A DNA stretch of 63,426 nt from a bacterium (GCA_031409775.1 JANNXY010000034.1:1-63426), one strand, 5' to 3'. Counted from the stretch's first letter, positions 3,909 to 42,851 are shown. The notes: a model not told the origin generated them from the sequence alone. Numbers and translations are program-made.

Positions 3909-3947
3909 AATGCAAAAATTTTATCATATATGCTAATATGACGCTAG

Positions 3948-7402: not shown

Positions 7403-8272
7403 TTATACCCCGATCATCCAAATTCCATTCTCTAGAAATGCTTCGATGCTTTGGCGATTGGCTTTATTGATTAGATTGGGATGGGAAATTTTGTTTTCTT
7501 TGGCATATTCTACGAGCTTGATAATCCTTTTACCCTCCATATATGCAAGCCTTTTGTGATAGCTGTTGGTCAATGCTTTCCCCACAATTTCTTCCATAAT
7601 TTCTGTCTTGCCTTCGGTTTGGAATTCTCTAAATGCACTGTAGTATTTCTGCCTATCTATAAATTTGATATTGATCGGCACGAAACCCTCCCTGATCAAT
7701 AAATAATTATTCAAAACTCTGCCGATACGACCATTGCCGTCGATAAATGGGTGAGTGTATTCAAAGGTGAGATGAAACTTGGCGATTTTTTTAATAATTT
7801 CGTTACTACTGCCGTAATACTCTGTAAACATCTTTTCTAGCCTCGGATGAATTTCTTGTGGTCCTGGAGCGATATGGTTACCTACTCTTACGTATTCTTT
7901 ATCTTTCCTGAACCTTCCTGCTATCTCATCTCGAATATTGGATATGAGTATTTTGTGAAGCAAAAGGATTGTGTCGAAATCTAACTCTCTTTCCTTTGCT
8001 ATTTTATTTATATATTCGACCACTCTAGCGAGATTCTTGGCCTCAAAAATTTCTCTTTCGGAAATATATCGATCAAGCTCTATTTGCAGCAAAATCCTGT
8101 CAGTTTCTTCGAGGCTTAGAGTACTATTCTCTATAGCGTTTGAGTTATAGACATGCTCAGGTATTTCTGCTTCGGAGAGAACCTTGATCAAAGACTCTTT
8201 GCCCGGAAGAGCATTCTGATACCTTTGTTTAAGTAAATCTATTTTTTTATAAACATTCAACCTTTTAGCCAT
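7403..8272 (-). CDS. Fic/DOC family protein
   Basis: Canonical Fic motif HPFIDGNGRIGR. Confidence 0.9.
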   Translation of the reverse strand: MAKRLNVYKKIDLLKQRYQNALPGKESLIKVLSEAEIPEHVYNSNAIENSTLSLEETDRILLQIELDRYISEREIFEAKNLARVVEYINKIAKERELDFDTILLLHKILISNIRDEIAGRFRKDKEYVRVGNHIAPGPQEIHPRLEKMFTEYYGSSNEIIKKIAKFHLTFEYTHPFIDGNGRIGRVLNNYLLIREGFVPINIKFIDRQKYYSAFREFQTEGKTEIMEEIVGKALTNSYHKRLAYMEGKRIIKLVEYAKENKISHPNLINKANRQSIEAFLENGIWMIGV

Positions 8273-8393: not shown

Positions 8394-9170
8394 TTAGGCG
8401 CCGACGACAAGTTCTATCGGGCAGTGATCTGATCCATAAATCTCGTGGTGGATTTTGGTGGATTCGAGTTTTTTAATTAAATCAGGAGAGACGAAGAAAT
8501 AGTCGATGCGCCAGCCGACGTTGCGCTCGCGGGCAAATGTCTTCATATCCCACCAGGTATACGCGTCCTTCTTGTCGGGATAGAAGTGCCTAAATGTATC
8601 GATGTATCCGGCCTCGGTGACTTCGTCGAGCCATGCGCGCTCGATAGGGAGGAATCCTGTATGGTTCTCGTTCTCCCGCGGCCTCGCCAGGTCGATCTCT
8701 TGATGGGCGGTGTTCACGTCGCCGCAGAATATCACCGACTTGCCACTCTTTTTAATTTTGTTTATATATTTAAGAAAGGCTTTATAAAATTCTAATTTAT
8801 ACTTGAGCCTCTCGATCCCACCTCCGCCGTTGGGGAAGTAGGATGTGATAATTACAAAAGTTTTGTAATGAAGTGCAATCAGGCGGCCTTCTTGGTCGAG
8901 CGTTTCTACACCGACTTCGTATTCTACCTTCATCGGCAGATTGTCTTTACGTACATATATGGCTGTACCACTGTAACCCTTGCGACCCTTGCTATGGTCA
9001 AAGTAGGAAGTGTAGCCAGCGGGGGAGTGAAGCGCGAGGTCGAGCTGGACTTTCTCGGCTTTGGTTTCTTGCATACAAATAAAATCAGGCTTCTCTCCTA
9101 GAAGCCATTCCATGCCACCTTTCTTATTCCACGCCCTAATCCCGTTTACATTCCAGCAGATGAGTTTCAT
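8394..9170 (-). CDS. xth: exodeoxyribonuclease III
   Basis: MKLICWNVNGIRA N-terminus and SDHCPI C-terminal motif. 258 aa. Confidence 0.9.
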   Translation of the reverse strand: MKLICWNVNGIRAWNKKGGMEWLLGEKPDFICMQETKAEKVQLDLALHSPAGYTSYFDHSKGRKGYSGTAIYVRKDNLPMKVEYEVGVETLDQEGRLIALHYKTFVIITSYFPNGGGGIERLKYKLEFYKAFLKYINKIKKSGKSVIFCGDVNTAHQEIDLARPRENENHTGFLPIERAWLDEVTEAGYIDTFRHFYPDKKDAYTWWDMKTFARERNVGWRIDYFFVSPDLIKKLESTKIHHEIYGSDHCPIELVVGA

Positions 9171-9787: not shown

Positions 9788-10717
9788 TCATCTACCTTTG
9801 TTATGAAACCTCTTGTGGATATCTCGGAGATGCGAGTCGGTGATATGGGTATAGATCTGCGTTGTGCCGATGTTGGCATGGCCTAGCAGCGCCTGCACAC
9901 TACGGAGATCCGCACCGTTGCGCAGTAGGTCTGTGGCGAAGCAATGACGGATCACGTGGGGAGTAACCTTCTTGCTTATACCTGCCTGGGTAGCATAACC
10001 TTTGACAATTCTCTCTATCGAGCGACGGGTGAGACCTTCGCCTTCTTTCATCGCTTTGCGCTCGCTGCCGAGCTTTACAAACAAGGCTTCGTCGAGATCC
10101 TTCCTAATATTTAAATATTCTTTGATCCGAGCTTTGCATTCATCGGAGAGGAACACCACTCGGACTTTGCTACCTTTACCCAAGACTGACATCTCGTCGC
10201 TATGTAGGTCGATCTCGCGAGTGAGAGCACAGAGCTCGGATACGCGGAGCCCGGTAGAGAAAAGTAATTCAAATATTGCTTTGCCTCGGGCTTTTTTCTC
10301 GGGATCTTTCTCTTTATCCGGTGCTTCCATAAGCCTTTTTAATTCATGTTCTGATATTAGATCGAGTGACCTCTCGGGGACCTTGGCGAGCTCGATGGTC
10401 TCGGGGGAAAGGGTCTTGATATTTCTCTTGGCCATAAACTTGAGAAAAGATCGTAGTGCGATAAGGTAGTAGTTCTGTGTGCGTTTCTTCATCGTTGCAC
10501 CGGTCTTTTTATTATTCCCAGCACTCTGCCTGTTGAGCCATAGCCTGAATTCGCGGACTTTCTCGTGGGTAATTGCATCAGGAGTAGTCACTTTGGCAAA
10601 GTCCATAAATACTGTTAGGTAATGATCATAGTTCCTGGCGGTGCTTATGGCTCGACCCTTCTCGATCTCTATGTATTCGAGGAATTGCTGCTTTAGTTCA
10701 CGGAGATTGTGCGACAT
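9788..10717 (-). CDS. tyrosine site-specific recombinase, XerC/XerD-like
   Basis: C-terminal catalytic region HVIRHCFATDLL...LLGHANIGTTQIYTH. TACAAT ends 6 nt before the ATG. Confidence 0.9.
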   Translation of the reverse strand: MSHNLRELKQQFLEYIEIEKGRAISTARNYDHYLTVFMDFAKVTTPDAITHEKVREFRLWLNRQSAGNNKKTGATMKKRTQNYYLIALRSFLKFMAKRNIKTLSPETIELAKVPERSLDLISEHELKRLMEAPDKEKDPEKKARGKAIFELLFSTGLRVSELCALTREIDLHSDEMSVLGKGSKVRVVFLSDECKARIKEYLNIRKDLDEALFVKLGSERKAMKEGEGLTRRSIERIVKGYATQAGISKKVTPHVIRHCFATDLLRNGADLRSVQALLGHANIGTTQIYTHITDSHLRDIHKRFHNKGR

Positions 10718-11637: not shown

Positions 11638-11710
11638 GAGAACAAAATGTCATACAATCATACATTAATTTGTTGTATTATTAGACAATTTGGTGTATAG
11701 TTATTTGTAT

Positions 11711-12508
11711 ATGGCAAACATACGAAGTATATTTATAAGAAATATGAGAGTGCAAAAGGGTTACTCCCAAGAAATGGTCGCCAAAGACCTCGGTATTTCT
11801 CGTGCGTCTTATATCAATATTGAAAGTGGGAAGAGGCAACTAGAACTCGAGGAAGCTGGCAACTTGGCTCGCATGTTTGAAATCTCAATTGAAGAATTAC
11901 TGCGGGGTAAAGTCGACGCAAAGGAAAAAATTTCATTGAGAAATGAAAGTTCAGAAAAAACCCCTAAGCAAAGCCGGGACGAAGAGAGAATTTCTGTACC
12001 CCAAGAAAAAGTAGACAAATTCAAGCAAGTTTTATTGTATATTTTGTCCAAAGTCGGAGGCAAGCCAAATATTGGCCAAACAGTATTGTATAAACTCCTG
12101 TATTTTATCGATTTTGATTATTATGAAAAATACGAGGAGCAGCTAATAGGGGCAAGATACATCAAGAATACGCACGGACCAACCCCTGTTATATTTTCAA
12201 AAATCACTGAAAACCTAGAATCACACGGTAAGATTGAGGCAATAAAAAGCAAATTCTACAAATATGACCAGACCAAATATCTCATAAATCCAGAATTAAA
12301 ACTTGATCTTTCTTCTCTATCTGCCCAAGAGCTGGCCCACATTGACTGGGAATTAGAAAGACTTTCTGATATGACAGCAAAAAAGATCTCTGATTTATCT
12401 CACAAAGACACCCCTTGGCGTATAGCAAATGATAAGGAGGTACTTAATTATAATTATGTTTTTTATCGCCCAGAAGAAACTTCTGTAAGAGAGTATGAGC
12501 CACTTTAA
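11711..12508 (+). CDS. XRE-HTH plus Panacea (DUF4065/SocA-like) domain antitoxin
   Basis: N-terminal XRE HTH (RVQKGYSQEMVAKDLGISRASYINIESGKR). C-terminal VLYKLLYFIDFDYY...THGPTP is typical of DUF4065/Panacea. 14-nt overlap with the next small ORF. Confidence 0.7.
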   Translation: MANIRSIFIRNMRVQKGYSQEMVAKDLGISRASYINIESGKRQLELEEAGNLARMFEISIEELLRGKVDAKEKISLRNESSEKTPKQSRDEERISVPQEKVDKFKQVLLYILSKVGGKPNIGQTVLYKLLYFIDFDYYEKYEEQLIGARYIKNTHGPTPVIFSKITENLESHGKIEAIKSKFYKYDQTKYLINPELKLDLSSLSAQELAHIDWELERLSDMTAKKISDLSHKDTPWRIANDKEVLNYNYVFYRPEETSVREYEPL

Positions 12509-12830
12509 TCATCTACCAGAATTCGACAGGGAATTCAAAAGGTTAGCAAAGAAGTATCGCACCCTAACCAATGACTATGCTGATTTCGAGAGAATGATCG
12601 CTCAAAATCCAACAGGTCTAGGAAAAAACTTTAGAATACTTCACGATTCATTGAGTGTAAAAATTATTAAAACTTATCTGTTTTGCGATTCTCTCAAAGG
12701 AAGGTCCCTCCGACTAATTTATGCTTTTCATAATGACAGACTTGATTTCATGTATATTGAAATATACTTCAAGGGAGACAAAGAAAACGAAGACAGGGAA
12801 AGGATCAAAAGCTACCTAAAATCAATATAG
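12495..12830 (+). CDS. putative toxin partner of the Panacea antitoxin (RelE/HigB-like pattern)
   Basis: 111 aa. FDREFKRLAKKY...KGRSLRLIYAFHNDRLDFMYIEIYFKGDKEN resembles the RelE/ParE-superfamily C-terminal pattern. Confidence 0.55.
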   Translation: MSHFNHLPEFDREFKRLAKKYRTLTNDYADFERMIAQNPTGLGKNFRILHDSLSVKIIKTYLFCDSLKGRSLRLIYAFHNDRLDFMYIEIYFKGDKENEDRERIKSYLKSI

Positions 12831-12877
12831 TTGTATTTATCCAAATATCAGGTATCCTTAACCTATAAACCAATCAA

Positions 12878-13471
12878 ATGACCGTAATCAAACACAAAGA
12901 ACAGCGCGTCGGTATATTTATAGATGCGCAGAACCTCTACCATAGTGCACGTAACCTATACAGTGCCCGCGTCAACTTCGCTGCGGTTGTAAAGGAAGCC
13001 CTCGAGGGTAGGGCTCTCATCCGTGCACGAGCATACGTCGTGTCTACCGAAGGTGGGGAAGAGAATAATTTCTTTGAAGCACTGGGCAAGAGCGGTATCG
13101 AGGTCAAGACCAAGCCTCTGCAGATATTTGCAGGGGGTCAGAAGAAAGCTGACTGGGACGTAGGGCTCGCGGTAGATGCGATAGCGCTCGCACCCAAGCT
13201 CGACACCGTGATCCTCGCCACAGGTGACGGGGACTTCTGTCCGCTCGTGGAGTACCTACAGATGCACGAGGGTTGTCAGGTAGAAGTAATATCATTCGGC
13301 AAGTCTAGCTCTGGCAAACTCCGCGAGATCGCAGACGACTTCATCGATATGTCCGAGGATCCCCGCAAATTTTTAATTAACTTCCGCCGCGGTCCTACTC
13401 GTAACCCACGAGGCAACAGAAACAATACCCCCGCACCAGCTCAAGAAGACTCTAGAAGGATTCATCCGTAG
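12878..13471 (+). CDS. NYN/LabA-like (DUF88) RNase-fold protein
   Basis: VGIFIDAQNLYHS ... ILATGDGDFCPLVEYL motifs of NYN/LabA. Confidence 0.85.
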   Translation: MTVIKHKEQRVGIFIDAQNLYHSARNLYSARVNFAAVVKEALEGRALIRARAYVVSTEGGEENNFFEALGKSGIEVKTKPLQIFAGGQKKADWDVGLAVDAIALAPKLDTVILATGDGDFCPLVEYLQMHEGCQVEVISFGKSSSGKLREIADDFIDMSEDPRKFLINFRRGPTRNPRGNRNNTPAPAQEDSRRIHP

Positions 13472-13980
13472 ACCAGCTCCATCTCGGGCATCGTAGTGCC
13501 ATTTCTCATAACTTCGCCATCGTATCTGTTGCCAGTATCTATAAATCCTAGTTTCTTGTAGAAATCCACCGCACTGGTATATGTAGCCACCCGAACGATG
13601 ATCCCGAGATGTGGATCTGCGAAATCCTTCGCAATCTGCCACAGGCTGTGCCCGACGCCTTGGCCTTGGTAACCCTCCAGTACATACATCGCTCTCAATT
13701 CATTGTGATCATGATGCCTCACCATGGTTGCTATACCTACGATATCTCCACCACACTCTGCGACCAGACGGCATTCGGTAGGCAGAGTGCTCGCAATCCT
13801 CGCTGACATTTTATCTATTTCACTAGGCTCCAATGAGTCCTTGAAGCTATATTTTATGTCTCCTCTCGTGATACCTAGGTCGGGGTTGGGATAAGTTGTA
13901 AGCCAAGTCTCACGTATTACCTCGAGTACACCGCGTGCATCATCCGGCACCGCCTTTCTGATAGTTATTTTTGGGTTCAT
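13462..13980 (-). CDS. GNAT family N-acetyltransferase
   Basis: VLEGYQGQGVGHSLW acetyl-CoA loop. TGCTAAAAT ends 7 nt before the ATG at 13980. Confidence 0.8.
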   Translation of the reverse strand: MNPKITIRKAVPDDARGVLEVIRETWLTTYPNPDLGITRGDIKYSFKDSLEPSEIDKMSARIASTLPTECRLVAECGGDIVGIATMVRHHDHNELRAMYVLEGYQGQGVGHSLWQIAKDFADPHLGIIVRVATYTSAVDFYKKLGFIDTGNRYDGEVMRNGTTMPEMELVYG

Positions 13981-14201
13981 GTGAACTATTTTAGCACTAA
14001 ATATAAAAAAGGAAGTTTTACGGTTAACTTCCAATCGATACGCCCGGAACGAATCCTGTCGATGTACTTATCTGACAACAGTATAACCTATTCGTCAATT
14101 ATTGTGCGGAATGATTACTGATTAATACATAGAATAACCTTTATTTGCAACATATTTGTATATATGCTATAATTTTGTTCGTAATAAGTAACAAAATACA
14201 T

Positions 14202-14426
14202 ATGGAAAAATTGTTTAATCCCTGGAATGAAAACAAGAAATCCCTTCACGAAAATGAAGAGAATAAGTTCTATCTGGGTCAGGTTGATGGTAGGGATGCA
14301 ACTGCGATCCTGTCGCAGGCAAAAGTATTTGATACAAAAAGATTGATTAGAAAGGTAAGTAGGATTGATGAAGAGAAATTTAACTTATTGGTGGTCAAGC
14401 TAAAAGAAGTGTTGTTTGGGAAATAA
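14202..14426 (+). pseudogene. PemK/MazF-like gene with in-frame internal deletion
   Basis: Retains N-terminal (WNENKKSLHENEENKFY) and C-terminal (VDGRDATAILSQAKVFDTKRLIRKV...) blocks collinear with the intact paralog 37975-38355. The central roughly 50 aa core is missing. Confidence 0.6.
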
Positions 14427-14503
14427 TTTTGCCCCCACTTGTGGTGGAGGCGAGCCCGAAGGCATTTATACATACATATTACACCAAGCATTATAATTGT
14501 CAA
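14427..14503 (-). ncRNA. candidate minimal promoter-hairpin unit, convergent with the PemK-like remnant
   Basis: Minus strand: TTGACA (14498-14503)-N16-TAATAT (14476-14481), then GCC-UUCG-GGC and an 8-bp hairpin (14431-14451) abutting the stop codon. Confidence 0.35.
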
Positions 14504-14511
14504 CCGAATTT

Positions 14512-35218: not shown

Positions 35219-36181
35219 ATGAGCAACAGATCTAGTCCGAGCAAGAAAGTAGTAGCATTGGGTATCGTATGCCTATCGGTGCTTTCTGCTGTTGCGATAT
35301 ACAAATGGCTTCCTAGATACGAACCAGAGAACCCTATACTTACAACTATCAGTCCGGACTTGACCCTATCTATCACTGCCACCCAGACTGACAGGGACAG
35401 TGACGGTGACGGACTACTCGACTGGCAGGAGGGTCTGTGGGGAACCAATCCCCAGGAGAAGGATTCTGACAATGACAAGACCCCTGACGGTGCAGAGGTA
35501 CAAGCAGGCCGGAACCCTACACTAGCAGGACCAGATGACTTGCAGGCCACGTCATCGCTCGCAGCGGGGTTGTTCCCAGACAGCGTTGCCCAGGGATTCG
35601 ACAACAGTCTGTCTGGCAATATCACCAAAGAGATGTTTTATTCATTTATAAATACCAAACAGGACCGAGGTATCGCATTTAGTACCGAAGATATCACACA
35701 GATCACATCCGAGCTCACAGCGAGCGCAGAGAATAGCCGTGTAACATTTGAGAAATACTCCCTAGACTCCATAGGCACATTCCCAGATAGCGACCTAGAA
35801 AGGGCAGAGGAGTATGGTGACAAATTCGCACAGATATATATAGATACGGAACAGAAACTAAACAAGCTCTCCAACGATGATATAGAATCAATCCTCCGAG
35901 AGCAGATAGCACTGGCCAAGAGCCTGTCTATACTATATGTCCCACAGTCACTACAGAGATCCCACGCCCAGATAGTAAACGACACATACAACGCTGGAGT
36001 TATCTACGAAATCCTCAGTAATTATGAGAATGACCCCATAAAGGCGATAGTCGCCGTAAAGAGCCTACGGGCTATAGAGGAGCGCAAAGTCGAGCTGTTT
36101 ACAACTATAGCCAATTATTTCCGCCGAAATGCTATAATTTTCACTAATCCTACCACCAAAGCATTATGGGAAAATTTTTAA
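35219..36181 (+). CDS. membrane-anchored protein with thrombospondin-type-3-like Ca-binding repeats
   Basis: N-terminal TM. DRDSDGDGLLDWQE and DSDNDKTPDGAE DxDxDG-type repeats. Confidence 0.55.
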   Translation: MSNRSSPSKKVVALGIVCLSVLSAVAIYKWLPRYEPENPILTTISPDLTLSITATQTDRDSDGDGLLDWQEGLWGTNPQEKDSDNDKTPDGAEVQAGRNPTLAGPDDLQATSSLAAGLFPDSVAQGFDNSLSGNITKEMFYSFINTKQDRGIAFSTEDITQITSELTASAENSRVTFEKYSLDSIGTFPDSDLERAEEYGDKFAQIYIDTEQKLNKLSNDDIESILREQIALAKSLSILYVPQSLQRSHAQIVNDTYNAGVIYEILSNYENDPIKAIVAVKSLRAIEERKVELFTTIANYFRRNAIIFTNPTTKALWENF

Positions 36182-37965
36182 GTATCTTTTTAATACTGAT
36201 TTTATTTGCAGCTACTCTGCAGGTTAATGCTCAGACCACATCTGTGAAGCCATCTACCAACGCACAAGTGCAAGGGTTTACTAACGGTGCTACAAGTGGT
36301 AATTCTTCTAACAATGCTTTCGGTAATGCTGCGGCAGATGCTGTTGGTTGTGGAGCAGGACAACTCGTAGCAGGGTTAGCCAGGAATGGTGTATCTGCGG
36401 TAGTAGGATCAGTCAAAGGCTCCGCAACGAACGCCATAACAAGCCAGCTCAATGTTACCCGCGTGCCAACACAGGATGCTGATACACCAGCTATCCGTGA
36501 CGACAATGCCAAGTCTACTGGCAAAGAAACAGGTGGAGGGTCACCGACACTTACAGGATCGGTAGCGGGTGCATTCGACCTACCGTCATGGGACTCGGTT
36601 GGATACTGTCTGGCGAATGCTGCTATCCACTATGTTACACAGTCGACAGTCAACTGGATCAACTCAGGCTTCAAGGGTAGCCCAGCGTTTGTAGACAACC
36701 CGGAACAGTTCTTCATAGGCATTGCGGACCAGGAGGCGGGAGGGTTTATCGAGGAGCTCGGTCTAGGGTTCCTATGTACAGAATTCTCGCCCAAAGTCCG
36801 CATCGCTCTGGTAAACGACTATATGAAGAGCACCAACGGTGTCCCGTACAAGAACCGCGCCTCCTGCACCATGACGAATGCTGTAAACAATGTGGAGAAA
36901 ATCTCTGCAGATTTCCAACGTGGTGACTTGAGCTCATATGTAGAATACGTAGGCAACCCAGCCAACCGTGCAGCATCATCCTACCTCATGGCACATGACG
37001 AGCTCAACAGACGTGTGAGTGTGAACCAGGGTAGGGCCAATTTCGAGTTACGCACGACAGACTTCCTTAGTTTCAAGAAATGCGAAGACGTAACCAACAA
37101 AACAACAGGTAAAACCGAGCAGAGGAATTGTCGCACATACGGCCCCGGCAAGGTTATCGAGGACGAGCTCAACAACGCCCTCGGTGCCAAATACGATCGT
37201 CTAGCTATTGCAGACGAGTTCGACGAAGTTGTAACAGCACTTATAAATCAGCTTATAAAGACAGCACTGAGCGAGGTTCTGTCAGATGACAGTGGCTCAT
37301 CTAACTCATCTAATGACAGATTCAAAACTGATTCAGATAGCAACTCGAACTCAAACACCAATTCAAATACGAACAACAACTCACAACCAACCACTGTAGT
37401 AGATGGATCGACAACCGGTGGAACCCCCACCGAGCGTGTGATCACAGCTACCTGTACAACAGATGTAGTAGCGAGCACCCAGGTAGGCAAGCCTGTTACA
37501 TTTACCGCTAGACCGCGTGGTGGAGCAGTGAACCAGGACTACACCTACGAATGGCTGGATGTTCCAGATGCCAGGCAACATACTACGGACAACCAGCTCG
37601 TAACGTATTTCCAGTCCCCAACCACAGCAACACTCATGCGTGTACGGGTTACATCTGCCGGCAAGCGTGCTATCGCCACATGCCCAACACTCACTATCGC
37701 TCCCGCTGACCCCATAGTAGCGAGCTGCAAACCCAGCACAACCAATGCCAAAAAGGTCACCGAAACAGTCACCTGGACAGCACAGGCTACAGGAGGCAAC
37801 GGTCAGTATGTATACAACTGGTCTGGCGAAGGTCTCGATAACAAGACCGGTTCATCCACAACAACGATATATGATACCAAAGGCGACAAGACTGCATTTG
37901 TCCAGGTTATCTCCGGTGCCGAATCCATCGATGTCACTTGCAGTGAGACGGTAAAGGTCAAGTAA
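36166..37965 (+). CDS. secreted protein with Ser/Asn linker and two C-terminal Ig/PKD-like repeats
   Basis: Signal peptide (LFAATLQVNAQ). DSDSNSNSNTNSNTNNNS linker. Two roughly 85-aa modules, each bracketed by Cys (TATCTTD...ATCPTL; ASCKPS...VTCSETV). Confidence 0.55.
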   Translation: MGKFLSIFLILILFAATLQVNAQTTSVKPSTNAQVQGFTNGATSGNSSNNAFGNAAADAVGCGAGQLVAGLARNGVSAVVGSVKGSATNAITSQLNVTRVPTQDADTPAIRDDNAKSTGKETGGGSPTLTGSVAGAFDLPSWDSVGYCLANAAIHYVTQSTVNWINSGFKGSPAFVDNPEQFFIGIADQEAGGFIEELGLGFLCTEFSPKVRIALVNDYMKSTNGVPYKNRASCTMTNAVNNVEKISADFQRGDLSSYVEYVGNPANRAASSYLMAHDELNRRVSVNQGRANFELRTTDFLSFKKCEDVTNKTTGKTEQRNCRTYGPGKVIEDELNNALGAKYDRLAIADEFDEVVTALINQLIKTALSEVLSDDSGSSNSSNDRFKTDSDSNSNSNTNSNTNNNSQPTTVVDGSTTGGTPTERVITATCTTDVVASTQVGKPVTFTARPRGGAVNQDYTYEWLDVPDARQHTTDNQLVTYFQSPTTATLMRVRVTSAGKRAIATCPTLTIAPADPIVASCKPSTTNAKKVTETVTWTAQATGGNGQYVYNWSGEGLDNKTGSSTTTIYDTKGDKTAFVQVISGAESIDVTCSETVKVK

Positions 37966-37974: not shown

Positions 37975-38355
37975 ATGAAAGACTTTGACACCTGGAACAA
38001 TCTTAAAAAGAATATAGATCTGATATCAACCACCGTATTCTGTAATAAAAGAGACGTTTGGTGGACCTCACTTGGACTAAACGTAGGTGTAGAAATAGAC
38101 GGAAAAGGTACAAATTTCGAAAGGCCATTTCTAATTATAAAGAAAATAAACAAACATTCTGTATTGGGGATACCACTCCTAAGCAATAAGCCTAAATTTG
38201 TAAATGCAATATCTGTAATTGCAGGGACCAAGGAATCTTTTGTTGTATTTAATCAGATCAAGGTTTTAAGTACGAAAAGACTACTGAGGAAAATTGGTAC
38301 GGTAAGCGAAGATGATTTTAAAAGAATCATTCAAGGACTTCAAGAATGGTTATAA
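37975..38355 (+). CDS. solitary PemK/MazF-like toxin-fold protein (intact copy)
   Basis: 126 aa. RDVWWTSLGLNVGVEIDGKG..FERPFLIIKK and QIKVLSTKRLLRKIG match the solitary PemK-like family. No adjacent protein antitoxin ORF. Confidence 0.65.
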   Translation: MKDFDTWNNLKKNIDLISTTVFCNKRDVWWTSLGLNVGVEIDGKGTNFERPFLIIKKINKHSVLGIPLLSNKPKFVNAISVIAGTKESFVVFNQIKVLSTKRLLRKIGTVSEDDFKRIIQGLQEWL

Positions 38356-38441
38356 ATGCGAAACCCCCTCGCAAGGAGGGGGAATCTCGGAGGCCGAAGC
38401 CATAATGTGTATATTATAGTCTCCAGTATAAATTAAGTCAA
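38356..38441 (-). ncRNA. candidate antisense small RNA unit, convergent with the PemK-like gene
   Basis: Minus strand: TTGACT (38436-38441)-N17-TATAAT (38413-38418), then GGC-UUCG-GCC, then CCCCCUCC-UUGC-GAGGGGG (38364-38382) plus UUUCGCAUUU, ending at the toxin stop codon. Confidence 0.4.
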
Positions 38442-38464
38442 TATACCCACCACCACCATCTACC

Positions 38465-38527
38465 CTCCACCTGTGAATTAAAATAGTATTTATCGCCGTT
38501 TTTCTGATACAATATATGCAATGAAAG
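38465..38527 (+). repeat. repeat copy A (promoter plus ATGAAA start)
   Basis: CTCCACCTGTGAATTAAAATAGTATTTATCGCCGTTTTTCTGATACAATATATGCAATGAAA. Differs from copy C at 3 positions. Confidence 0.9.
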
Positions 38528-39003
38528 ATACTATCGCCTATATCGATGCTTCTAACCTAAGGTTTGGAATTGAGCAAAGTAGCTGGGAAATGGACTATAA
38601 ATCATTTAGGTCTTGGCTACGTGATAAGTTTGGTGTAAATAAGGCAATACTATTTATGGGTTTGGTTCCTGAATATGCCGACCTGTATAATTCTCTCCAA
38701 AGTATGGGTTATGATATTTCATTTAAGCCTACAATTAAAGGCTACAATGGTAAAACCAAGGGGAATGTGGATGGTGAACTAATACTTCAAATTAGCAAAG
38801 ATTACTATGAAAGCAGTGCTGCTTCGGTAGTTCTAGTTTCTGGAGACGGGGATTATCACTGTATCGTAGAGTTTTTAAAGGAAAAAGGGGTTCCAGTTAC
38901 GATAATCTCCCCAAACGAAAAGTATTTATCGCTTTTGCTTAAAAGAACCAATGTTCCTATCGTTATACTTGATCAATTTAAAGAGAAACTAAAGAGGAAA
39001 TAG
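38521..39003 (+). CDS. NYN/LabA-like RNase-fold protein
   Basis: IAYIDASNLRFG ... VLVSGDGDYHCIVEFL. Uses the duplicated promoter and start of repeat copy A. Confidence 0.8.
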   Translation: MKDTIAYIDASNLRFGIEQSSWEMDYKSFRSWLRDKFGVNKAILFMGLVPEYADLYNSLQSMGYDISFKPTIKGYNGKTKGNVDGELILQISKDYYESSAASVVLVSGDGDYHCIVEFLKEKGVPVTIISPNEKYLSLLLKRTNVPIVILDQFKEKLKRK

Positions 39004-39097
39004 CCATAAATGAAAAGGCCCTCGGGTATGCCGTGACATACCAGAGGTCCTTTTCTTGTTTATACATACATAATATCAAACTTATTTCAGGTGTCAA
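39004..39097 (-). ncRNA. candidate promoter-hairpin unit, convergent with the NYN gene (includes a bidirectional terminator)
   Basis: Minus strand: TTGACA (39092-39097)-N16-TATTAT (39070-39075), GTATGTATAAA leader identical to the unit at 14466-14476, then an 18-bp imperfect hairpin (39013-39054) flanked by A/T runs. Confidence 0.4.
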
Positions 39098-39111
39098 ATA
39101 AGAAAATCAAT

Positions 39112-39147
39112 CCCACCTGTGAATTAAAATAGTATTTATCGCCAGTT
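39112..39147 (+). repeat. repeat copy B (truncated)
   Basis: CCCACCTGTGAATTAAAATAGTATTTATCGCCAGTTTT. Ends at the stop codon of the minus-strand NYN gene. Confidence 0.85.
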
Positions 39148-39690
39148 TTAAGCCTTAAATAATTCCAGCTGATCATTTGATAACAAGATTCGATAGTCGC
39201 TTTCTTTGATCATACCGAGAGATGGCTCACTAGAAAATCCAACGTATTCTACAATTTTCCCTTTCGATCTAATGTACTTTACTGCCGGGATTAAATCTGT
39301 GTCAGAACTTACAATTACCGCAATATCGAAATTTTCCTCCACCGCACCAATCACCAAATCTATAGCTATTTGTACATCCACACCTTTTTCTCTAATTTTG
39401 TTATCGTAAACAATTCTTCCTCTTTTGACTTGGTAACCATCATTTTCTAAGCCGCTGAGGAGTTTCTGCTGGCTTTCCACCATCTTTTGACTTTTATCGC
39501 TCTTGTCATGGTTTCTCACTATACCAATGTAATAGTTTCTATAAATAACATTTCCGCCTCTAGCTAGAAACTTGGCAAATTTAATGTAATCAAATCTCGT
39601 CCCTTTGGCAAAAACCCCACTCTGCCTTATTCTCTGGTAGAAATTGCCGCCGTCAATAAATATTGCCACCTTCTTTCCTGAATTATCCAT
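39148..39690 (-). CDS. NYN/LabA-like RNase-fold protein
   Basis: VAIFIDGGNFYQR ... VIVSSDTDLIPAVKYI. TGTGATAAAAT ends 7 nt before the ATG. Confidence 0.85.
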   Translation of the reverse strand: MDNSGKKVAIFIDGGNFYQRIRQSGVFAKGTRFDYIKFAKFLARGGNVIYRNYYIGIVRNHDKSDKSQKMVESQQKLLSGLENDGYQVKRGRIVYDNKIREKGVDVQIAIDLVIGAVEENFDIAVIVSSDTDLIPAVKYIRSKGKIVEYVGFSSEPSLGMIKESDYRILLSNDQLELFKA

Positions 39691-39707
39691 TCTCTGTATT
39701 TTATCAC

Positions 39708-39792
39708 AGGATAAACAAAACCACCCTTACTCTCGCGAGTAGGGGTGGTGGTGTTAATAAATACATTATACACAACCCCCAGATTCATGCAA
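39708..39792 (-). ncRNA. candidate promoter-hairpin unit immediately upstream of the minus-strand NYN gene
   Basis: Minus strand: TTGCAT (39787-39792)-N16-TGTGTATAAT (39765-39774), about 20 nt, then a 12-bp hairpin (39721-39748) plus TTTTGTTT. Confidence 0.4.
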
Positions 39793-39795
39793 ATA

Positions 39796-39858
39796 CTCCA
39801 CCTGTGAATTAAAATAGTATTTATCGGCAGTTTTCTGATACAATATATGCAATGAAAT
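39796..39858 (+). repeat. repeat copy C (promoter plus ATGAAA start of the VirB6-like gene)
   Basis: CTCCACCTGTGAATTAAAATAGTATTTATCGGCAGTTTTCTGATACAATATATGCAATGAAA. Confidence 0.9.
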
Positions 39859-42851
39859 CGTTTCTACGCGCAATTTTCCTTACTTTAGCATTTGTGGTTA
39901 TTTTGGGTGGAATAAATAATATAAATAATGCAGAAGCATCTTTTAAAAAGGTAACTGAAAATACCTACACGATATACAACAACCTCCAACCAACTCAGGA
40001 AATAAATACTGTAACCATATCAAACAAAGCAGTTCCAGTAACATTTAATTCATTTACATATTTACAGGCAGGAACAAAAGAAAGCGGAGTGGGAGGGATT
40101 TACCACCAATCAAATGGAAAAAGGGTGGTCTTAGAACTTCAAGACAAAGGAAAATTTCATGTAACAGGCCAGAACGCTAGCGGCTATGATGACGATATCA
40201 TACTAGGCATGTATGTCAAAGGTCCCCAGCCAAATTCACCTGTTACATATTATGCCTTTAAAGATCCCCTACCGAAAAGTGCTACTGCCGCACTCGCTGC
40301 ACAAACTTTAGACGACGCTGGAAATATTGCCGGTATATCTGGTCCCGGCTTTGCCCAAGACTTCGGTTTTTCTGTAAACAATTCAGATAAAGGTCCGACA
40401 GTAAATACATCGCAGGAAGATCACATTAAAATTGTGAATGAAAAAGAGACTGAGTGTAATTTAATCCAAAGTAATTTAAATAATGCTTCTACAGATGCCG
40501 AGAGGTTATTCCTTCAAACAAAGCTGGCAACTTGCAAATCAGAGCTATCTGCCGCAACAACGAAACAAACAACTGAAAAGAAAGCTGAGAAAAAATTTAA
40601 TGAAGAAAAAATCGGTGTAAGTGGGGTTGGCCTCCCAAGCTGCGGAAAAATGTTCTCGGAAGCATTGGTTCCTGGAGGCAATGATGGTAGTCAAGAAATT
40701 GGCAACTGTGCAGCGGCAATCGCGAACTTCTTTGTCGAAGCATTTTCATTTCTACTGGTGCTCGCTGCGTATACATTCGACTACATGCTGCAATTTACGA
40801 TCGTAGACTTCAGTAGCTATGCTTGCGCAACTTGCAATAACGGCCAGCCAGGATCACTCTACGGACCGATCAGCATAGTCTGGACTCTGATCAAAAACAT
40901 TTGTAACTTGATATTTATCGGCACTATTCTATACATTGCCATAAAGACTATTGTAGACGGCAACGGATTCGGCGATCACAAGCTCCTGGGCAAGGTGATA
41001 ATAATGGCCTTCCTCATCAACTTTAGCCTACTATTTACCAAGCTAGCTATAGATGCATCCAATATCGCCACGCTCGAGATATATCGAGGTATCACGTCGT
41101 CTCAGAAAGCAGAGATCTCTGGTGCAGTGAGCGTCACAGGCAAGGCCGCAGACCTAGTAGGTATAAAGGATAATGAAGGGGGATCACTCGCTGCAGCATA
41201 CCTGAACAACATGCTTATAACCAAGGTTTATGATGGTACAGATACTAGTATCTCCTGGAACACCATAATCACGAACGGCATGCTCGCGATCGTGTTCATC
41301 CTCGTAGCTACATTCGTATTCCTCGCTGCATCACTCATGTTCCTCATGAGATTCTTCAAACTCATCCTACTTATGATGACGTCGCCTGTCGCGTTTGTGG
41401 GATCTATATTCCCAAATGCATCTAGCTACGCGTCGAGCTGGTGGAAGAATCTGCGGGAGAACCTACTATTCGCGCCTGTGTTCATGATCATGGCGTATAT
41501 ATCACTACAGATGCTTGCCGCGACCAAAGGCATCCTAGATGGTGGCGACAGAGTTTCCCTGGTCATCACCTATGCATTCACCATCATCTCTATGGGTGCC
41601 TGCCTCGTCGGGGCCAAGATGGCCGGGGGGCATGCAGGGTCAGCGGATTGGGCAACAAAAATGGGTAAAAGTATCACTGGCAGACTTACTGCAGGAACAG
41701 CAGGAGTGCTTGGAAGAAATACAATTGGAAGATTTTCGAATTATGCTGCAAAAAGCTCTGCACTAACCACTCTAGCCTCCAAAACTGGTGTGAGCGGCAT
41801 CGCTGGACGCAGCCTACAGAAACTTGCCGGAACTGGAGCCAAAGCAACTTATGATGCCAGAAATACGAAAACTGTTGGGGCACTCGGCCTAGGCAAGGCC
41901 GGCGGAGAAGGTGGTTATGCAGGCAGACAAGAAGAAGTAGCTAAATTCCAAGAGAAACAATTAAAGAGCATTACCGAGGGATCTAGAGAGGAGAAAGTTA
42001 GGAAGGGTTTGTATGATTACCATAAATCTCAGTCAGACAAAGTTAGAGATATTGATTTTATTATAAAACAGAACACTGATAATAAAGCTAAAAAGACCAC
42101 CGAACTTTCTACAATCAATAGCAATATCAAAGCTCAAGTAGATGAAGAGACGAGATTGGATACAGAAAAGAAAAAAATAGACAATAATAAGGAAACTGCA
42201 GAGGGGGAGCTAAAAACCACAGCGAAAGATACCGCAGAAATCATTGAAAACAAGACTGGTAAGTTCAGGGCCACTGAAATATCTGCTGCCAAAGCTAAAG
42301 TAACTGCAGCGGAAAGTAAACTTGAAGCAGTTCGTGCGAGTGAGAAGAGTCTGGACTACGATACCAAAGTTAAAAAAGTTCGCTCCGAACTAAAAACATT
42401 CCAAGATAATAAAAAGGAGGCAGAGGATGCTATCAAGAAGGCTCAAAAAGACATCGATGATGTTACTAAACTAAGCCCTGAGGACGAAAATAAAGGTGAA
42501 ACAAAGACCAAACAACAAAAAGCAGCAGATGAATTGAAAAAGGCAAATGAGAGGTTGGCTTCAGCTGGCTATAAAGATGCCTCTGAAATTGAAGGGTTGA
42601 AAAATGAAGTCAAGGATGCAGAAAAAGCAAGAAAGGAACTTCAGGAAAAATATCTAAAAGACCTAACAGCCCCCGGATCACTAGTAAAGACATATAGAGG
42701 AGTAATAGGAGAGAATACCGCCAATGAAGAAGCCCTAGTCAAATTCCTAAAGGATAATTACAAAAAAGACGAAGACAAGATGTTAGAAAAGCTCAAGAAG
42801 TCACTCAAAGATGATGAAAAGAAGGAGGAGAAGAAAGATGATAAAAAATAA
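39852..42851 (+). CDS. VirB6/TrbL-like polytopic membrane protein with large N-terminal ectodomain and K/E-rich coiled-coil tail
   Basis: 999 aa. Signal peptide, about 250-aa ectodomain, 6-7 TM helices (about aa 290-590), long charged C-terminus. It is the only polytopic protein in the T4SS-like cluster. Confidence 0.5.
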   Translation: MKSFLRAIFLTLAFVVILGGINNINNAEASFKKVTENTYTIYNNLQPTQEINTVTISNKAVPVTFNSFTYLQAGTKESGVGGIYHQSNGKRVVLELQDKGKFHVTGQNASGYDDDIILGMYVKGPQPNSPVTYYAFKDPLPKSATAALAAQTLDDAGNIAGISGPGFAQDFGFSVNNSDKGPTVNTSQEDHIKIVNEKETECNLIQSNLNNASTDAERLFLQTKLATCKSELSAATTKQTTEKKAEKKFNEEKIGVSGVGLPSCGKMFSEALVPGGNDGSQEIGNCAAAIANFFVEAFSFLLVLAAYTFDYMLQFTIVDFSSYACATCNNGQPGSLYGPISIVWTLIKNICNLIFIGTILYIAIKTIVDGNGFGDHKLLGKVIIMAFLINFSLLFTKLAIDASNIATLEIYRGITSSQKAEISGAVSVTGKAADLVGIKDNEGGSLAAAYLNNMLITKVYDGTDTSISWNTIITNGMLAIVFILVATFVFLAASLMFLMRFFKLILLMMTSPVAFVGSIFPNASSYASSWWKNLRENLLFAPVFMIMAYISLQMLAATKGILDGGDRVSLVITYAFTIISMGACLVGAKMAGGHAGSADWATKMGKSITGRLTAGTAGVLGRNTIGRFSNYAAKSSALTTLASKTGVSGIAGRSLQKLAGTGAKATYDARNTKTVGALGLGKAGGEGGYAGRQEEVAKFQEKQLKSITEGSREEKVRKGLYDYHKSQSDKVRDIDFIIKQNTDNKAKKTTELSTINSNIKAQVDEETRLDTEKKKIDNNKETAEGELKTTAKDTAEIIENKTGKFRATEISAAKAKVTAAESKLEAVRASEKSLDYDTKVKKVRSELKTFQDNKKEAEDAIKKAQKDIDDVTKLSPEDENKGETKTKQQKAADELKKANERLASAGYKDASEIEGLKNEVKDAEKARKELQEKYLKDLTAPGSLVKTYRGVIGENTANEEALVKFLKDNYKKDEDKMLEKLKKSLKDDEKKEEKKDDKK

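Follow-up and report, generated by a model that had tools for sequence, protein, structure and literature searches.

How did three small RNase-like genes, with copies of one promoter and start codon among them, come to lie inside a T4SS-like gene cluster, and what are the short promoter-hairpin units that adjoin them? We addressed these questions in a stretch of 63,426 nucleotides (the window, meaning the whole stretch of DNA that was analysed) from a Patescibacteria-like (CPR) host; this kind of cassette is present in dozens of related metagenomic genomes. The genome is leaderless, with essentially no Shine-Dalgarno motifs, and a -10 box lies 6-9 nt before the start codon in about two in five of the genes examined.

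The insert and its repeats before the VirB6-like gene

The junction between the upstream gene and the VirB6-like gene measures 55-68 bp in the three closest relatives found; in the window the same junction holds 1.9 kb of AT-rich DNA with a PemK-like gene and two NYN genes (Table 1). The gene order in the relatives (L001-L007) is KsgA...314 aa-615/737 aa-VirB6-like-PrgI-TraC-VirB4, with the cassette genes absent at the junction, and the 599-aa gene of the window has a C-terminal sequence similar to those of its 615/737-aa counterparts, which also lie directly upstream of the VirB6-like gene. The relatives with an empty site are remote (32-36% identity to the window in their VirB6-like proteins), but the short junction agrees with the initial annotation in placing an insertion inside the T4SS cluster, as does the G+C content of the insert, about 36% (0.35-0.39), compared with 45-53% (0.45-0.53) in the flanks. 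The VirB6-like protein itself matches PF04610 at 21.2 bits, below the cut-off of 25.9; its tentative assignment is supported by the neighbouring genes, which include PrgI, TraC-like, VirB4-like ATPase, and T4SS pilin genes.

Table 1. Features of the insert and its surroundings in the window, and target duplications at loci in other contigs.
Feature	Position	Strand	Remarks
PemK-like remnant ORF (74 aa, putative) of a second PemK-type unit	14203-14426	+	translation read against PemK C-terminus
Convergent promoter and two-hairpin unit (predicted) at the second PemK-type unit	~14427-14510	-	fold
599-aa gene of T4SS-like cluster, left flank	36166..37965	+	matches 615/737-aa gene of L001-L006
PemK/MazF-like RNase gene, cassette 1	37975..38355	+	PF02452
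PemK-associated RNA unit, convergent with PemK	38356..38441	-	-35 38441-38436, -10 38418-38413
Repeat copy A	38465-38526	+	duplicate of native virB6 intergenic promoter plus ATGAAA; reference copy
NYN-A RNase gene, cassette 2	38521..39003	+	PF01936
NYN-A-associated RNA gene	39008..39097	-	-35 39097-39092, -10 39075-39070, RNA ~39064-39008
Repeat copy B, partial	39111-39149 (37-39 nt)	+	5' part of virB6 intergenic region
NYN-B RNase gene, cassette 3, inverted	39148..39690	-	PF01936
NYN-B-associated RNA unit, upstream, same strand	39709..39793	-	P1 -35 39793-39788, -10 39770-39765
Repeat copy C	39796-39857	+	promoter and leaderless start, still joined to VirB6-like gene
VirB6/TrbL-like membrane protein (999 aa), right flank	39852..42851	+	PF04610 weak match
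NYN-A, same T4SS junction	L008-10		≥35 bp duplication, promoter plus ATG
NYN-A	L029		35 bp duplication, dnaG codons 1-12 fused in frame
NYN-A	L043		18 bp duplication
PemK	L047		~105 bp duplication
NYN-B	L015		~33-40 bp duplication plus partial tRNA
NYN-B	L070		≥33 bp duplication

All three inserted genes encode proteins of 126-180 aa with predicted RNase folds. The PemK-like gene (PF02452, E=5.6e-11, 43 bits with the cut-off at 23.1) begins 9 nt past the 599-aa gene and has a -10-like TAAATT 6 nt before its ATG; no ORF with antitoxin features was found around it (37975-38355), and no protein antitoxin gene at the two other PemK-like loci, L047 and the 14.2-kb copy. The ORF of that second copy is putatively PemK-like as well, judged by eye against the PemK C-terminus. 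The genes flanked by the repeats carry NYN domains (PF01936), as had been proposed, with scores of 59.3 bits (NYN-A) and 75.4 bits (NYN-B) against a cut-off of 24.2. Two NYN cassettes had been described; both stand, and the PemK-like gene to their left makes a third cassette. A recent duplication of one NYN gene is ruled out, since NYN-A and NYN-B are only 22% identical, and we take the two to be separate acquisitions. Asp 9, 84, 109, and 111 are invariant in 29 NYN-A sequences, so the catalytic Asp residues of the NYN fold appear intact in NYN-A; its AF2 model (pLDDT 88) is closest in the PDB to 2qip (TM 0.77, a PIN-like fold), which was also the sole match in a PDB sequence search, a search that returned no match for NYN-B or the PemK-like protein. 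NYN-B matches the PADLOC system HEC-09 (E=1.8e-16) and has an extended -10 of its own, TGATAAAAT, whose TAAAAT hexamer (39703-39698) lies 7 nt before the ATG. PADLOC gave NYN and HEC-09 matches only over the locus; Pfam gave NYN and PemK_toxin only over the cassette genes, with no ToxN/AbiQ, CptN, or TenpN family; and NCBIfam gave nothing above any curated cut-off.

The repeat copies A and C are 95% identical, with 3 mismatches in 62 nt (the mismatch count given initially is correct; the length is 62 nt, not 63). The 29-mer CCACCTGTGAATTAAAATAGTATTTATCG occurs at exactly three sites in the window (38467, 39113, and 39798), and a 27-mer that contains the extended -10 TGATACAAT (38505-38513 in copy A) and ATGAAA occurs at two; the -10 box, the ATG, and the first Lys codon are indeed all part of the repeat. 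Shuffled sequence gave 0 matches to either. Over 39113-39149, copy B is a match to the initial 37 nt of copy C; it reaches the NYN-B stop codon (39148-39150) as reported, but its end lies at 39149, so that it overlaps this codon by 2 nt. The intergenic regions of three relatives (L001, L005, and L006) align with the repeat (CTGTG.ATTAA ... TGnTAnAAT ... AATGAAA), which upholds the view that copy C is the native promoter and copy A a captured duplicate. By this alignment, the repeat is the VirB6-like gene's own promoter together with its leaderless start. The triplicated repeat is the native intergenic region, duplicated as the cassettes went in: copy A provides NYN-A with its promoter and a leaderless ATGAAA start, and through copy C the VirB6-like gene remains intact. 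The 37-nt match of copy B would be explained if NYN-B had been inserted second, at a later time, into the downstream copy.

Small-RNA units associated with the RNase genes

Each cassette has a minus-strand unit with a near-consensus promoter, namely TTGACT/TATAAT for PemK (first hexamer starting at 38441; 11/12 consensus matches), TTGACA/TATTAT for NYN-A (39097; 11/12), and TTTGCA/TATAAT for NYN-B (39793; 10/12). Folding of the three units, from left to right, gives stable hairpins of -21.4, -27.2, and -26.0 kcal/mol (z-scores -2.3, -5.1, and -4.7), with a T run behind each. The RNA predicted for the PemK unit is about 50 nt long and forms two hairpins, one with a UUCG loop and the other a terminator (38364-38382) extending to the PemK stop codon; the NYN-A RNA gene is convergent with NYN-A, the two having a bidirectional terminator hairpin in common; and in the NYN-B unit the single hairpin is followed by UUUUG. 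No tandem repeats were found in the RNA units, and no Rfam family matched at the locus, by gathering score or by E-value. A possible sequence similarity among the three hairpin units was dropped, since their alignment shows a common layout only. The string TATGTATGTATAAA, noted earlier for the units at 39070-39080 and 14466-14479, is shared as stated; its positions are 39059-39072 and 14465-14478, both on the minus strand.

Comparison of loci provides the evidence that these units are genes. In 33 NYN-A loci the ORF is followed by a TTGACA-N17-TGnTATACT promoter and a hairpin RNA of about 55 nt; the -35 hexamer and the TG-extended -10 are kept in the 33 loci, with variation in both spacer and discriminator. 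The hairpin comprises 18 pairs; on the minus strand 594/594 stem cells pair (87 of them as G·U), compared with 507/594 on the plus strand, where the 87 G·U become C·A; six pairs have changes on both sides, and 0/500 shuffles reached the observed values. The mean column identity of the RNA is 92%; the loop and the A·G and U·U/U·C mismatches are conserved too. Conservation begins at the NYN-A start codon and stops about 90 nt past the beginning of the hairpin, with no conserved sequence found upstream of NYN-A across the loci. A covariance model of this RNA (R1) has just one site in the window (minus strand 83.9 bits, plus strand 40.5), detects the RNA in 15 further NYN-A loci, including ones whose homologues are only 42-44% identical, and has no match in 14 loci without NYN-A.

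The other two units rest on small samples (five contexts for NYN-B, three for PemK). For NYN-B, the promoter P1, the hairpin, the T run, and the second -10 are conserved in 5 contexts; the RNA unit is kept upstream of the gene in L015, L065, L071, and L075, with 3 compensatory pairs, and its covariance model (R2) has a single site in the window (74.5 bits). The PemK-like genes at 37975-38355, at 14203-14426, and in L047 share the same convergent two-hairpin architecture (n=3), and a PemK-like gene adjoins NYN-A in L047 and L048. The units are thus conserved together with their genes in other genomes, which supports the initial annotation in treating them as real, and they are best described as predicted small-RNA genes, each with a sigma-70-type promoter and a terminator hairpin.

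What would these RNAs do? The gene layout suggests that they would be antidotes or repressors of the RNases, which would make each cassette a toxin/RNA-antitoxin (addiction or defence) module. Since the PemK and NYN-A units are convergent with their genes and overlap the stop codon and terminator, their RNAs are by construction complementary to the mRNA over about 50-55 nt there, and could destabilise or silence it; for NYN-A the complementarity is to the 3' end of the mRNA only, not to the start. The NYN-B RNA lacks such complementarity and cannot pair with its mRNA, so it would have to bind the protein, or work through read-through or promoter occlusion. With the three units placed differently relative to their genes, one common mechanism is not obvious.

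The same anatomy would be seen if the RNAs were not antidotes but cis regulators or insulators that set the RNase level by convergent transcription or by keeping out read-through from neighbour genes, and the RNases were beneficial proteins (in defence or RNA turnover) instead of addictive toxins. The failure of the NYN-B RNA to pair with its mRNA and the pairing of the NYN-A RNA with a 3' end only would both fit, and a terminator between P1 and the leaderless P2 of NYN-B would suit promoter occlusion. However, a terminator or roadblock would not need 92% mean column identity with conserved mismatches and loop, and the layout is found again at a gene of the MazF fold, a fold best known from toxins, where a protein antitoxin is absent. 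We therefore regard this alternative as rather unlikely, though it deserves a real share of the probability, and retain the antidote reading in what follows.

Horizontal spread and mode of entry

NYN-A homologues are 66-78% identical across Patescibacteria, and the listed NYN-B homologues 54-80%; the best VirB6-like homologue is 36% identical, compared with 54-80% for the homologues of the two NYN proteins. Both are short single-domain families, found here almost only in Patescibacteria-like metagenomic contigs. The cassettes occur in many contexts, among them behind rpoC, rnc, or RNase J, in the fusA-tuf interval, beside a tRNA gene, and before dnaG, and their G+C content (0.33 ± 0.03) is lower than that of the flanks (0.39 ± 0.045; n=30) in 28 of 30 loci. 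We conclude that the PemK/MazF-like, NYN-A, and NYN-B cassettes are horizontally acquired, AT-rich elements. A large share of the NYN-A loci is found in one neighbourhood (rpoC-NYN-A-...-dnaG), which indicates that NYN-A is also stably inherited within a clade. Searches with the exact NYN-A and NYN-B proteins (no record) and with a 22-mer of the repeat (absent from genome contigs and metagenome contigs) found no empty or alternative allele in the same species; the VirB6-like protein had no relative among genome contigs, the region no match to plasmids by blastn, NYN-A none to phages by tblastn (NYN-B had one weak match), and NYN-B none among viral contigs.

It could be argued that these are resident housekeeping RNase genes with bidirectional terminators and chance promoters, and that the repeats arose by local tandem duplication with no horizontal insertion. 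Promoter-like matches are frequent in AT-rich DNA (16 found in the region, 8.7 expected), a strict terminator scan of the region found no hairpin terminator, and part of the NYN-A family does sit in the stable rpoC...dnaG neighbourhood. But chance promoters are difficult to reconcile with hexamers conserved in 33 loci while their spacers vary, or with stem changes that keep pairing on the promoter strand only; and residence with related clusters that lack these genes at the junction, with many unrelated contexts, with identities far above those of backbone proteins, and with the G+C difference given above. We consider this explanation quite improbable.

Flanking duplications are also present in other genomes. 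They consist of local target sequence that differs between loci and is about 18-105 bp long (with those of the window included, the lengths are about 18, 35, 37, 62, and 105 bp), and they often join the first codons of the target to the RNase. In most NYN-A loci a flanking repeat was not seen, and in some loci donor flank of variable length accompanies the cassette. No recombinase was found within about 25 kb of the array; the sole one found in the window is a Xer-like tyrosine recombinase (9788-10717), about 28 kb away, which confirms an earlier remark that none lies nearby. Inverted repeats at the cassette ends and a transposase were looked for and not found; with duplications of variable length as well, the insert is not a transposon or insertion sequence. 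Three further candidates were rejected: an outward cassette promoter in the conserved stretch AATTTATAAGCTTA, 3' of some NYN-A cassettes, belongs to a neighbour gene of the rpoC...dnaG clade (in L029 it came along as donor flank); what looked like one more cassette, upstream of NYN-A in L030, consists of the rpoC 3' end and, behind it, a hairpin that we read as the rpoC terminator; and the target gene of L047, taken for a transposase, has only a weak Pfam match to a PD-(D/E)XK nuclease.

A site-specific, integron-like array, built by an integrase acting in trans with the repeat as attachment site and the hairpins as attC-like single-stranded DNA sites, would account for several features: one site close to a promoter holds a stack of cassettes that measure about 600 bp and carry a single gene and an imperfect hairpin apiece; in the window, the right end of each of the three cassettes meets an intergenic copy at the same left edge; the hairpin is constrained on one strand only; and a tyrosine recombinase is present. 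However, the repeats at other loci are unrelated to this one and match the local target (dnaG codons, tRNA leaders) over 18 to about 105 bp, no sequence upstream of NYN-A is conserved, donor flank of variable length travels along, and the recombinase is both distant and Xer-like. In addition, the constrained strand has a conserved -35 and -10 upstream of the hairpin, correctly spaced from it, and these point to an RNA and not to a DNA site. We judge such an array very unlikely. That the repeat is an artefact of mis-assembly of a mixed population, a possibility allowed for at the outset, is hardly credible: contigs L008, L009, and L010 do all stop exactly within the second copy of the repeat, where repeats or strain variation disturb assemblies, but the three copies here differ by point changes at specific positions, unique DNA with intact ORFs separates them, independent assemblies of other organisms have this kind of structure as well, and long contigs from unrelated samples (L029, 188 kb; L043; L047) contain comparable structures in their interior.

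The explanation that we favour, and hold to be somewhat better than evenly supported, is that RNase/RNA-antitoxin-like modules without defined ends spread horizontally and were inserted illegitimately before the VirB6-like gene. Imported DNA most likely entered through illegitimate recombination, which homology may have facilitated or which may have proceeded by template switching. The RNA always has a complete strong promoter, NYN-A relying on one captured from the host; and selection would keep those duplications that include a promoter and 5' end, since in these events the target gene is preserved and the RNase is expressed. For transforming DNA, homology-facilitated illegitimate recombination is known from Acinetobacter, Streptococcus pneumoniae, and Pseudomonas stutzeri. 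It resembles the present case in inserts without defined ends, variable donor flank, slightly diverged repeat copies, and insertion beside conserved anchors (dnaG, tRNA, the virB6 start), and would fit; template switching during replication would fit equally well. Random illegitimate insertion alone does not predict the common left edge of the three right ends.

More tentatively, as a possibility that we rate below an even chance, the cassettes could represent a new class of mobile addiction or defence modules in Patescibacteria: an NYN- or MazF-fold RNase with a dedicated single-hairpin RNA antitoxin that is neither classical type I nor type III, spreading without a recombinase of its own. 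The insertion sites of such modules would be leaderless starts of resident and often essential genes, with duplications of variable length that hand a promoter and start codon to the RNase and regenerate the target gene. In a stronger form, the NYN nuclease or the RNA itself may participate in insertion.

Comparison with known systems

Convergent RNAs with a bidirectional terminator are known from toxin-antitoxin (TA) loci of type I, such as par/Fst-RNA II of pAD1 and bsrG/SR4 and txpA/RatA of Bacillus subtilis. As in these, a short RNA with its own strong promoter is directed towards the toxin gene and overlaps the 3' end of its mRNA (NYN-A and PemK). Unlike type I toxins, which are small and usually hydrophobic peptides, the present proteins are predicted RNases 126-180 aa long; no complementarity was seen to the start of translation; and the upstream region is host-derived and variable. 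The gene at 37975-38355 has the PemK/MazF fold of type II MazEF/PemIK systems, but a convergent RNA unit in place of an adjacent protein antitoxin ORF.

The ToxN fold is related to PemK/MazF, and an RNA partner that accompanies such an RNase fold is a point in common with type III TA systems. In the latter (ToxIN, CptIN, TenpIN; PMC3401426, PMC5086642), the antitoxin upstream of the toxin is made up of direct repeats of about 34-45 nt arranged in tandem. At NYN-B, the RNA gene upstream on the same strand with a terminator between repeats that order, as the initial annotation had pointed out, but the likeness stops there: tandem RNA repeats are absent, the proteins are NYN or PemK and not ToxN/CptN/TenpN, and the NYN-A and PemK units are convergent and not upstream. 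Similar to integron cassettes, these are small single-gene hairpin units stacked beside a promoter, with NYN-A lacking one of its own; they differ in having no integron integrase and no conserved attC, in repeats that are variable-length target duplicates, and in a hairpin that is predicted to belong to a transcribed unit.

The cassettes have the look of a toxin/RNA-antidote module not described so far. To our knowledge, few small RNAs have been described in Patescibacteria; those found here match no Rfam family, and the comparative support for the NYN-A RNA is unusually clean for about 55 nt. If the RNAs are antidotes, RNA-controlled toxins would extend to NYN nucleases and to MazF-fold proteins without MazE, and two small protein families found here almost only in Patescibacteria-like contigs would gain a function. 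The duplications show how foreign genes can enter tiny, leaderless, gene-dense genomes while sparing essential genes (dnaG, a secretion gene), and, by including promoter and start codon, make promoter capture directly readable from sequence.

Among known RNases, NYN-A and NYN-B resemble the NYN/LabA-DUF88 proteins (HEC-09 and the NYN RNase domain of MARF1) in their Pfam domain and conserved aspartates, in the HEC-09 match of NYN-B, and in the closeness of the NYN-A model to 2qip. HEC-09, the one NYN candidate examined for phage defence, showed none, and the preprint that describes it mentions no associated small RNA (bioRxiv 10.1101/2024.01.29.577857). Distant NYN genes also occur on 4.2-kb Klebsiella plasmids.

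Two NYN cassettes at the VirB6-like junction

The window is chromosomal: it encodes DnaA, DnaN, UvrD, KsgA, ComM, a class A PBP, YidC and TyrRS, together with a T4SS-like cluster (a PrgI-like gene, a VirB4/TraG-like ATPase and a T4SS pilin-like gene), and the named database matches for its proteins are to Patescibacteria/CPR, including Jorgensenbacteria, Pacebacteria, Taylorbacteria and Kaiserbacteria. Domain matches agree with the gene calls of the initial annotation: an NYN domain in the products of both NYN-A and the inverted NYN-B, and a weak TrbL/VirB6-like match in the 999-aa product of the downstream gene. The upstream gene is PemK/MazF-like (here PemK), and no protein antitoxin gene was found around it. 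The NYN active-site aspartates are intact in sequence comparison, and the nearest match to the modelled NYN-A fold is the NYN protein 2qip. NYN-A and NYN-B share only 22% protein identity, which rules out a recent duplication of one from the other.

The triplicated repeat described from the sequence alone was recovered by repeat search as a 62-nt family with two long copies and one partial copy (copies A to C in the table). The 63 kb contain its first 29 nt, CCACCTGTGAATTAAAATAGTATTTATCG, exactly three times and its last 27 nt, TTTTCTGATACAATATATGCAATGAAA, twice; shuffled sequence gave 0 matches to either end. Copies B and C differ by one mismatch, B and A by two, and A and C by three. The match of copy B to the others runs to GTTTT (39149), so that the stop codon of NYN-B (39148-39150) shares two bases with its end.

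The three closest VirB6-like homologues found are 32-36% identical to the window protein, and their clusters share with the window the gene order KsgA ... 314 aa - 615/737 aa - VirB6-like - 257 aa - PrgI - TraC-like - VirB4-like. In these relatives the upstream gene is separated from the VirB6-like gene by 55-68 bp, with no cassettes, versus 1.9 kb in the window, where the inserted DNA has 35-39% G+C versus 45-53% on both sides; this comparison, which the initial annotation had proposed, bears out its reading of an insertion inside the T4SS cluster. The relatives' short intergenic regions align with the window repeat (invariant: CTGT.ATTA, TGnTAnAAT and AATGAAA), the ATG lying only a few bases past the -10; by this alignment, the repeat unit is the entire native intergenic region plus the first two VirB6-like codons, and copy C was rightly taken as the VirB6-like gene's promoter. 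Since Shine-Dalgarno motifs are practically absent from the genome (whole window) and about two-fifths of the genes examined have a -10-like box whose end lies 6-9 nt upstream of the start codon, leaderless mRNAs appear to be the rule in this organism, and a -10 box plus ATG would be the minimal expression signal.

Features of the window, and target duplications at the window and at comparison loci from other genomes (L handles)
Locus	Position (strand)	Feature	Details
Window	3838-4019	two divergent tRNA genes	40 nt apart; Rfam 71.6 and 63.2 bits
Window	7403-8272	Fic/DOC protein	
Window	8394-9170	endonuclease/exonuclease/phosphatase-family protein	
Window	9788-10717 (-)	tyrosine recombinase, SAM-like N-terminal domain	only recombinase found in the window
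Window	11690-12508	HTH + SocA/Panacea antitoxin-domain protein	second small island (11690-13471)
Window	12495-12830	111-aa ORF, no family	overlaps SocA/Panacea-domain gene
Window	12878-13471	third NYN-domain gene	E=7.8e-36; same island
Window	13462-14034	GNAT acetyltransferase gene	convergent with the 11690-13471 island
Window	14203-14510	second unit	74-aa ORF with PemK-like C-terminus; convergent promoter, two-hairpin unit
Window	37975-38355 (+)	PemK	
Window	38465-38526	repeat copy A	reference copy
Window	38521-39003 (+)	NYN-A	
Window	39111-39149	repeat copy B	partial
Window	39148-39690 (-)	NYN-B	
Window	39796-39857	repeat copy C	95% identical to reference
Window	39852-42851 (+)	VirB6-like gene	
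Window		NYN-A, NYN-B	62 and 37 nt of virB6 intergenic region duplicated
L008, L009, L010		NYN-A-like, same junction after KsgA-309 aa-834 aa genes	at least 35 nt duplicated
L029		NYN-A	first 35 nt of dnaG duplicated
L043		NYN-A	18 nt, including start of secreted-protein gene
L047		PemK	~105 nt, including promoter + 17 codons of downstream gene
L015		NYN-B	~33-40 nt beside tRNA-Ala + partial tRNA copy
L070		NYN-B	at least 33 nt

Small-RNA units beside the RNase genes

The minus-strand promoter-hairpin units noted at first reading are present: three promoter-like sites match 11, 11 and 10 of the 12 consensus positions, and folding places a stable hairpin with a T tail downstream of each. NYN-A homologues (66-78% identical) occur on many Patescibacteria-like contigs, and we obtained 46 further loci, to which exact-protein look-ups added seven. 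A conserved block of ~90 nt lies 3′ of the NYN-A ORF in almost every one, with the consensus CTTGACA - 17 nt - TGCTATACT - 7 nt - (C/T)ATAAACAAGAAAGAGACCCCTGATATGTTACGGCATATCTGGGGGCTTTTTCATTT on the opposite strand. Both hexamers and the TG are conserved and the spacer and the bases past the -10 vary freely, as would be expected if the promoter is functional. An increase in information content marks the start codon of NYN-A, and background is reached ~90 nt past the hairpin start, just beyond the -35.

Pairing in the hairpin was counted over 33 sequences and 18 pairs. Read as the minus strand, all 594 cells are standard pairs, 87 of them G·U; the plus-strand reading turns these 87 into C·A and leaves only 507 of the 594 paired, so that all of the stem variation is tolerated only in the antisense transcript. 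At six stem pairs both partners have changed. Neither the observed pairing nor the covariation was attained in any of 500 shuffles (a count that is not a probability, since the sequences are related), and all slid controls were far lower; we consider the strand asymmetry the stronger argument. The hairpin also has conserved non-canonical positions, A·G (in 32 of the 33 sequences) and U·U or U·C. A covariance model of this RNA has one site in the window, with scores of 83.9 bits for the minus strand versus 40.5 for the plus strand, and matches the RNA beside 15 further NYN-A genes outside the training set, including homologues of 42-44% identity, with no match in 14 loci without NYN-A; no Rfam family matches it. 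Some members (L008, L021, L042, L049, L058 and L059) have no TGA stop, the ORF continuing into the hairpin (…KKPPDMP); in the remaining ones the stop codon and an ATG share bases (ATGA), and this ATG opens the same 8-codon frame. Directly 5′ of NYN-A in L021, L032, L042 and L046 is a conserved, non-coding-looking stretch (…gtgcgtgaggactga…cagttttgtctgtttccccttttgcaaaca), possibly a structured RNA or the end of a gene.

The NYN-B unit was compared in five distinct contexts (the window, L015, L065, L071 and L075), all with the same order: the promoter P1 (-35, 17 nt, TG-TATAAT), 6-7 nt, the hairpin block ATTAACAyCACyGCCCCTACTCGCAAGAGTAAGGGCrGTTTTG, 10-20 variable nt, a second -10 box, 6-11 nt and the NYN-B ATG. 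Three stem pairs show compensatory changes. Conservation of the cassette stops at the stop codon, and its bounds in the window are exact: repeat C (2 nt past the -35) and repeat B (at the stop codon).

For PemK, three genes could be compared: the window gene, the 74-aa remnant (14203-14426) and a 36% identical gene in L047. A convergent TTGAC(A/T)-N17-TAtAaT promoter lies 3′ of each, and the transcripts contain a 3-4-bp hairpin (tetraloops UUCG, UUCG and GUUA), followed by a GC-rich terminator hairpin extending to the PemK stop codon; with n=3, the support here is weaker. The 14-mer TATGTATGTATAAA, which spans the -10 to +1 region of the NYN-A RNA promoter and of the unit in 14203-14510, is indeed common to these two units, at 39059-39072 (not 39070-39080, as initially placed) and 14465-14478. 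Because the corresponding stretch of the NYN-A unit is variable in other genomes, the shared 14-mer points to exchange or homogenisation inside this genome.

Proposed function of the small RNAs

In all three cassettes, then, the RNase gene is accompanied by a tiny RNA gene with its own promoter and terminator. The RNA promoter is complete; NYN-A lacks one of its own, and a -10 box is all that NYN-B has. At NYN-A and PemK, the RNA shows full complementarity to the part of the mRNA that contains the stop codon and the terminator. We infer that the small RNAs restrain the RNases in the manner of toxin-antitoxin modules; the main rival reading is that they are purely regulatory. A toxin-antitoxin-like check could operate by antisense pairing at the mRNA 3′ end for NYN-A and PemK, and by RNA-protein binding or promoter occlusion for NYN-B; with the RNase under RNA control, loss of a cassette would be difficult, which could account for the spread of the cassettes.

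The type I loci par/Fst and bsrG/SR4 have a convergent layout. The NYN-A and PemK units are similar in this respect, but their proteins are not small peptides. PemK has the MazF fold, yet the module is not type II. In type III loci an RNA gene and a toxin gene are arranged in tandem (PMC3401426, PMC5086642); the likeness to them drawn in the initial annotation holds for the tandem layout of NYN-B but not beyond it, since there are no tandem RNA repeats and no ToxN-family toxin. NYN-B matches the PADLOC profile HEC-09, whose NYN candidate is embedded in defence systems and gave no defence when tested (bioRxiv 10.1101/2024.01.29.577857). Full-text literature searches on NYN proteins with toxin-antitoxin systems or antisense RNA, or in Patescibacteria, turned up no description of these RNAs. 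Overall, the comparisons carry the finding well past the window: they point to RNase-plus-small-RNA cassettes not described before, common across Patescibacteria-like genomes and with a characteristic promoter/5′-end duplication, and they essentially support the original interpretation.

Spread of the cassettes and mode of insertion

The NYN homologues listed are 54-80% identical, versus 36% for the best VirB6-like homologue; we take this far stronger conservation than that of the backbone proteins as evidence of movement. The NYN families occur in many unrelated contexts: downstream of rpoC, of an RNase J-like gene or of a putative rnc (read from C-terminal sequences), upstream of dnaG, next to tRNA-Ala, and between fusA and tuf. 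The G+C content of the NYN-A cassette is 0.33 ± 0.03, lower than that of its flanks (range 0.31 to 0.47) in 28 of 30 loci. One clade retains rpoC-NYN-A-...-dnaG, and therefore inheritance is also vertical within a clade. Genes for distant NYN-B relatives (~27% identity) lie on ColE1-type plasmids of 4.2 kb that carry few genes in all, such as the 4232-bp Klebsiella plasmid NZ_CP058964.1 (L081) and similar records, and occur on Leptospira plasmids too.

Target sequence is duplicated around cassettes of all three kinds (see table); the longest chance match in shuffles was 9-15 nt. The repeat in L008-L010 is unrelated in sequence and contains a -10 box, an ATG and codons; in L029, 12 dnaG codons form an in-frame fusion with NYN-A and a complete dnaG lies downstream. 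Most NYN-A loci lack a flanking repeat of this kind, which would fit decay after older insertions. N-terminal extensions differ widely within the NYN-A family, as expected of fusions to different host starts. The L029 cassette carries ~65 nt extra that correspond to the NYN-A downstream neighbourhood of the rpoC...dnaG clade, indicating a transferred fragment without a fixed end.

From these sequence features, we infer that the best fit is an illegitimate insertion of imported DNA. Homology to conserved genes may have provided an anchor on one side (homology-facilitated illegitimate recombination); alternatively, the insertion may have come about by template switching during replication. Events that spare the target gene and supply the RNase with a promoter and a start codon would be favoured by selection. 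The variable length and target specificity of the repeats, together with the lack of fixed ends, exclude both a fixed-stagger transposase and an element-borne attachment site. For the window, one order fitting the copy differences would be insertion of NYN-A first, with the 62-nt duplication, and then of NYN-B into the downstream copy, with the 37-nt duplication; this order does not explain why all three cassette right ends adjoin the same left edge of an intergenic copy.

L008 (4636-4670), L009 and L010, independent assemblies of one organism, end at the identical base inside the second repeat copy, which suggests strain-level variation or further repeat copies beyond. In L065-L070, NYN-B is flanked by what look like copies of a short repeat element whose ends are conserved (ACAACAAAAA ... 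AAGCTCGGnTTTyCGTTTAAGAA) and whose interiors differ; the NYN-B protein encoded in L070 is identical to that of L065, but the sequence downstream is not the same. Just past the NYN-A cassette of L029, 5′ of the regenerated dnaG, is a perfect DnaA-box-like TTATCCACA (2560-2575), which is also found in the window before the ORF at 1530 and before dnaN (53202).
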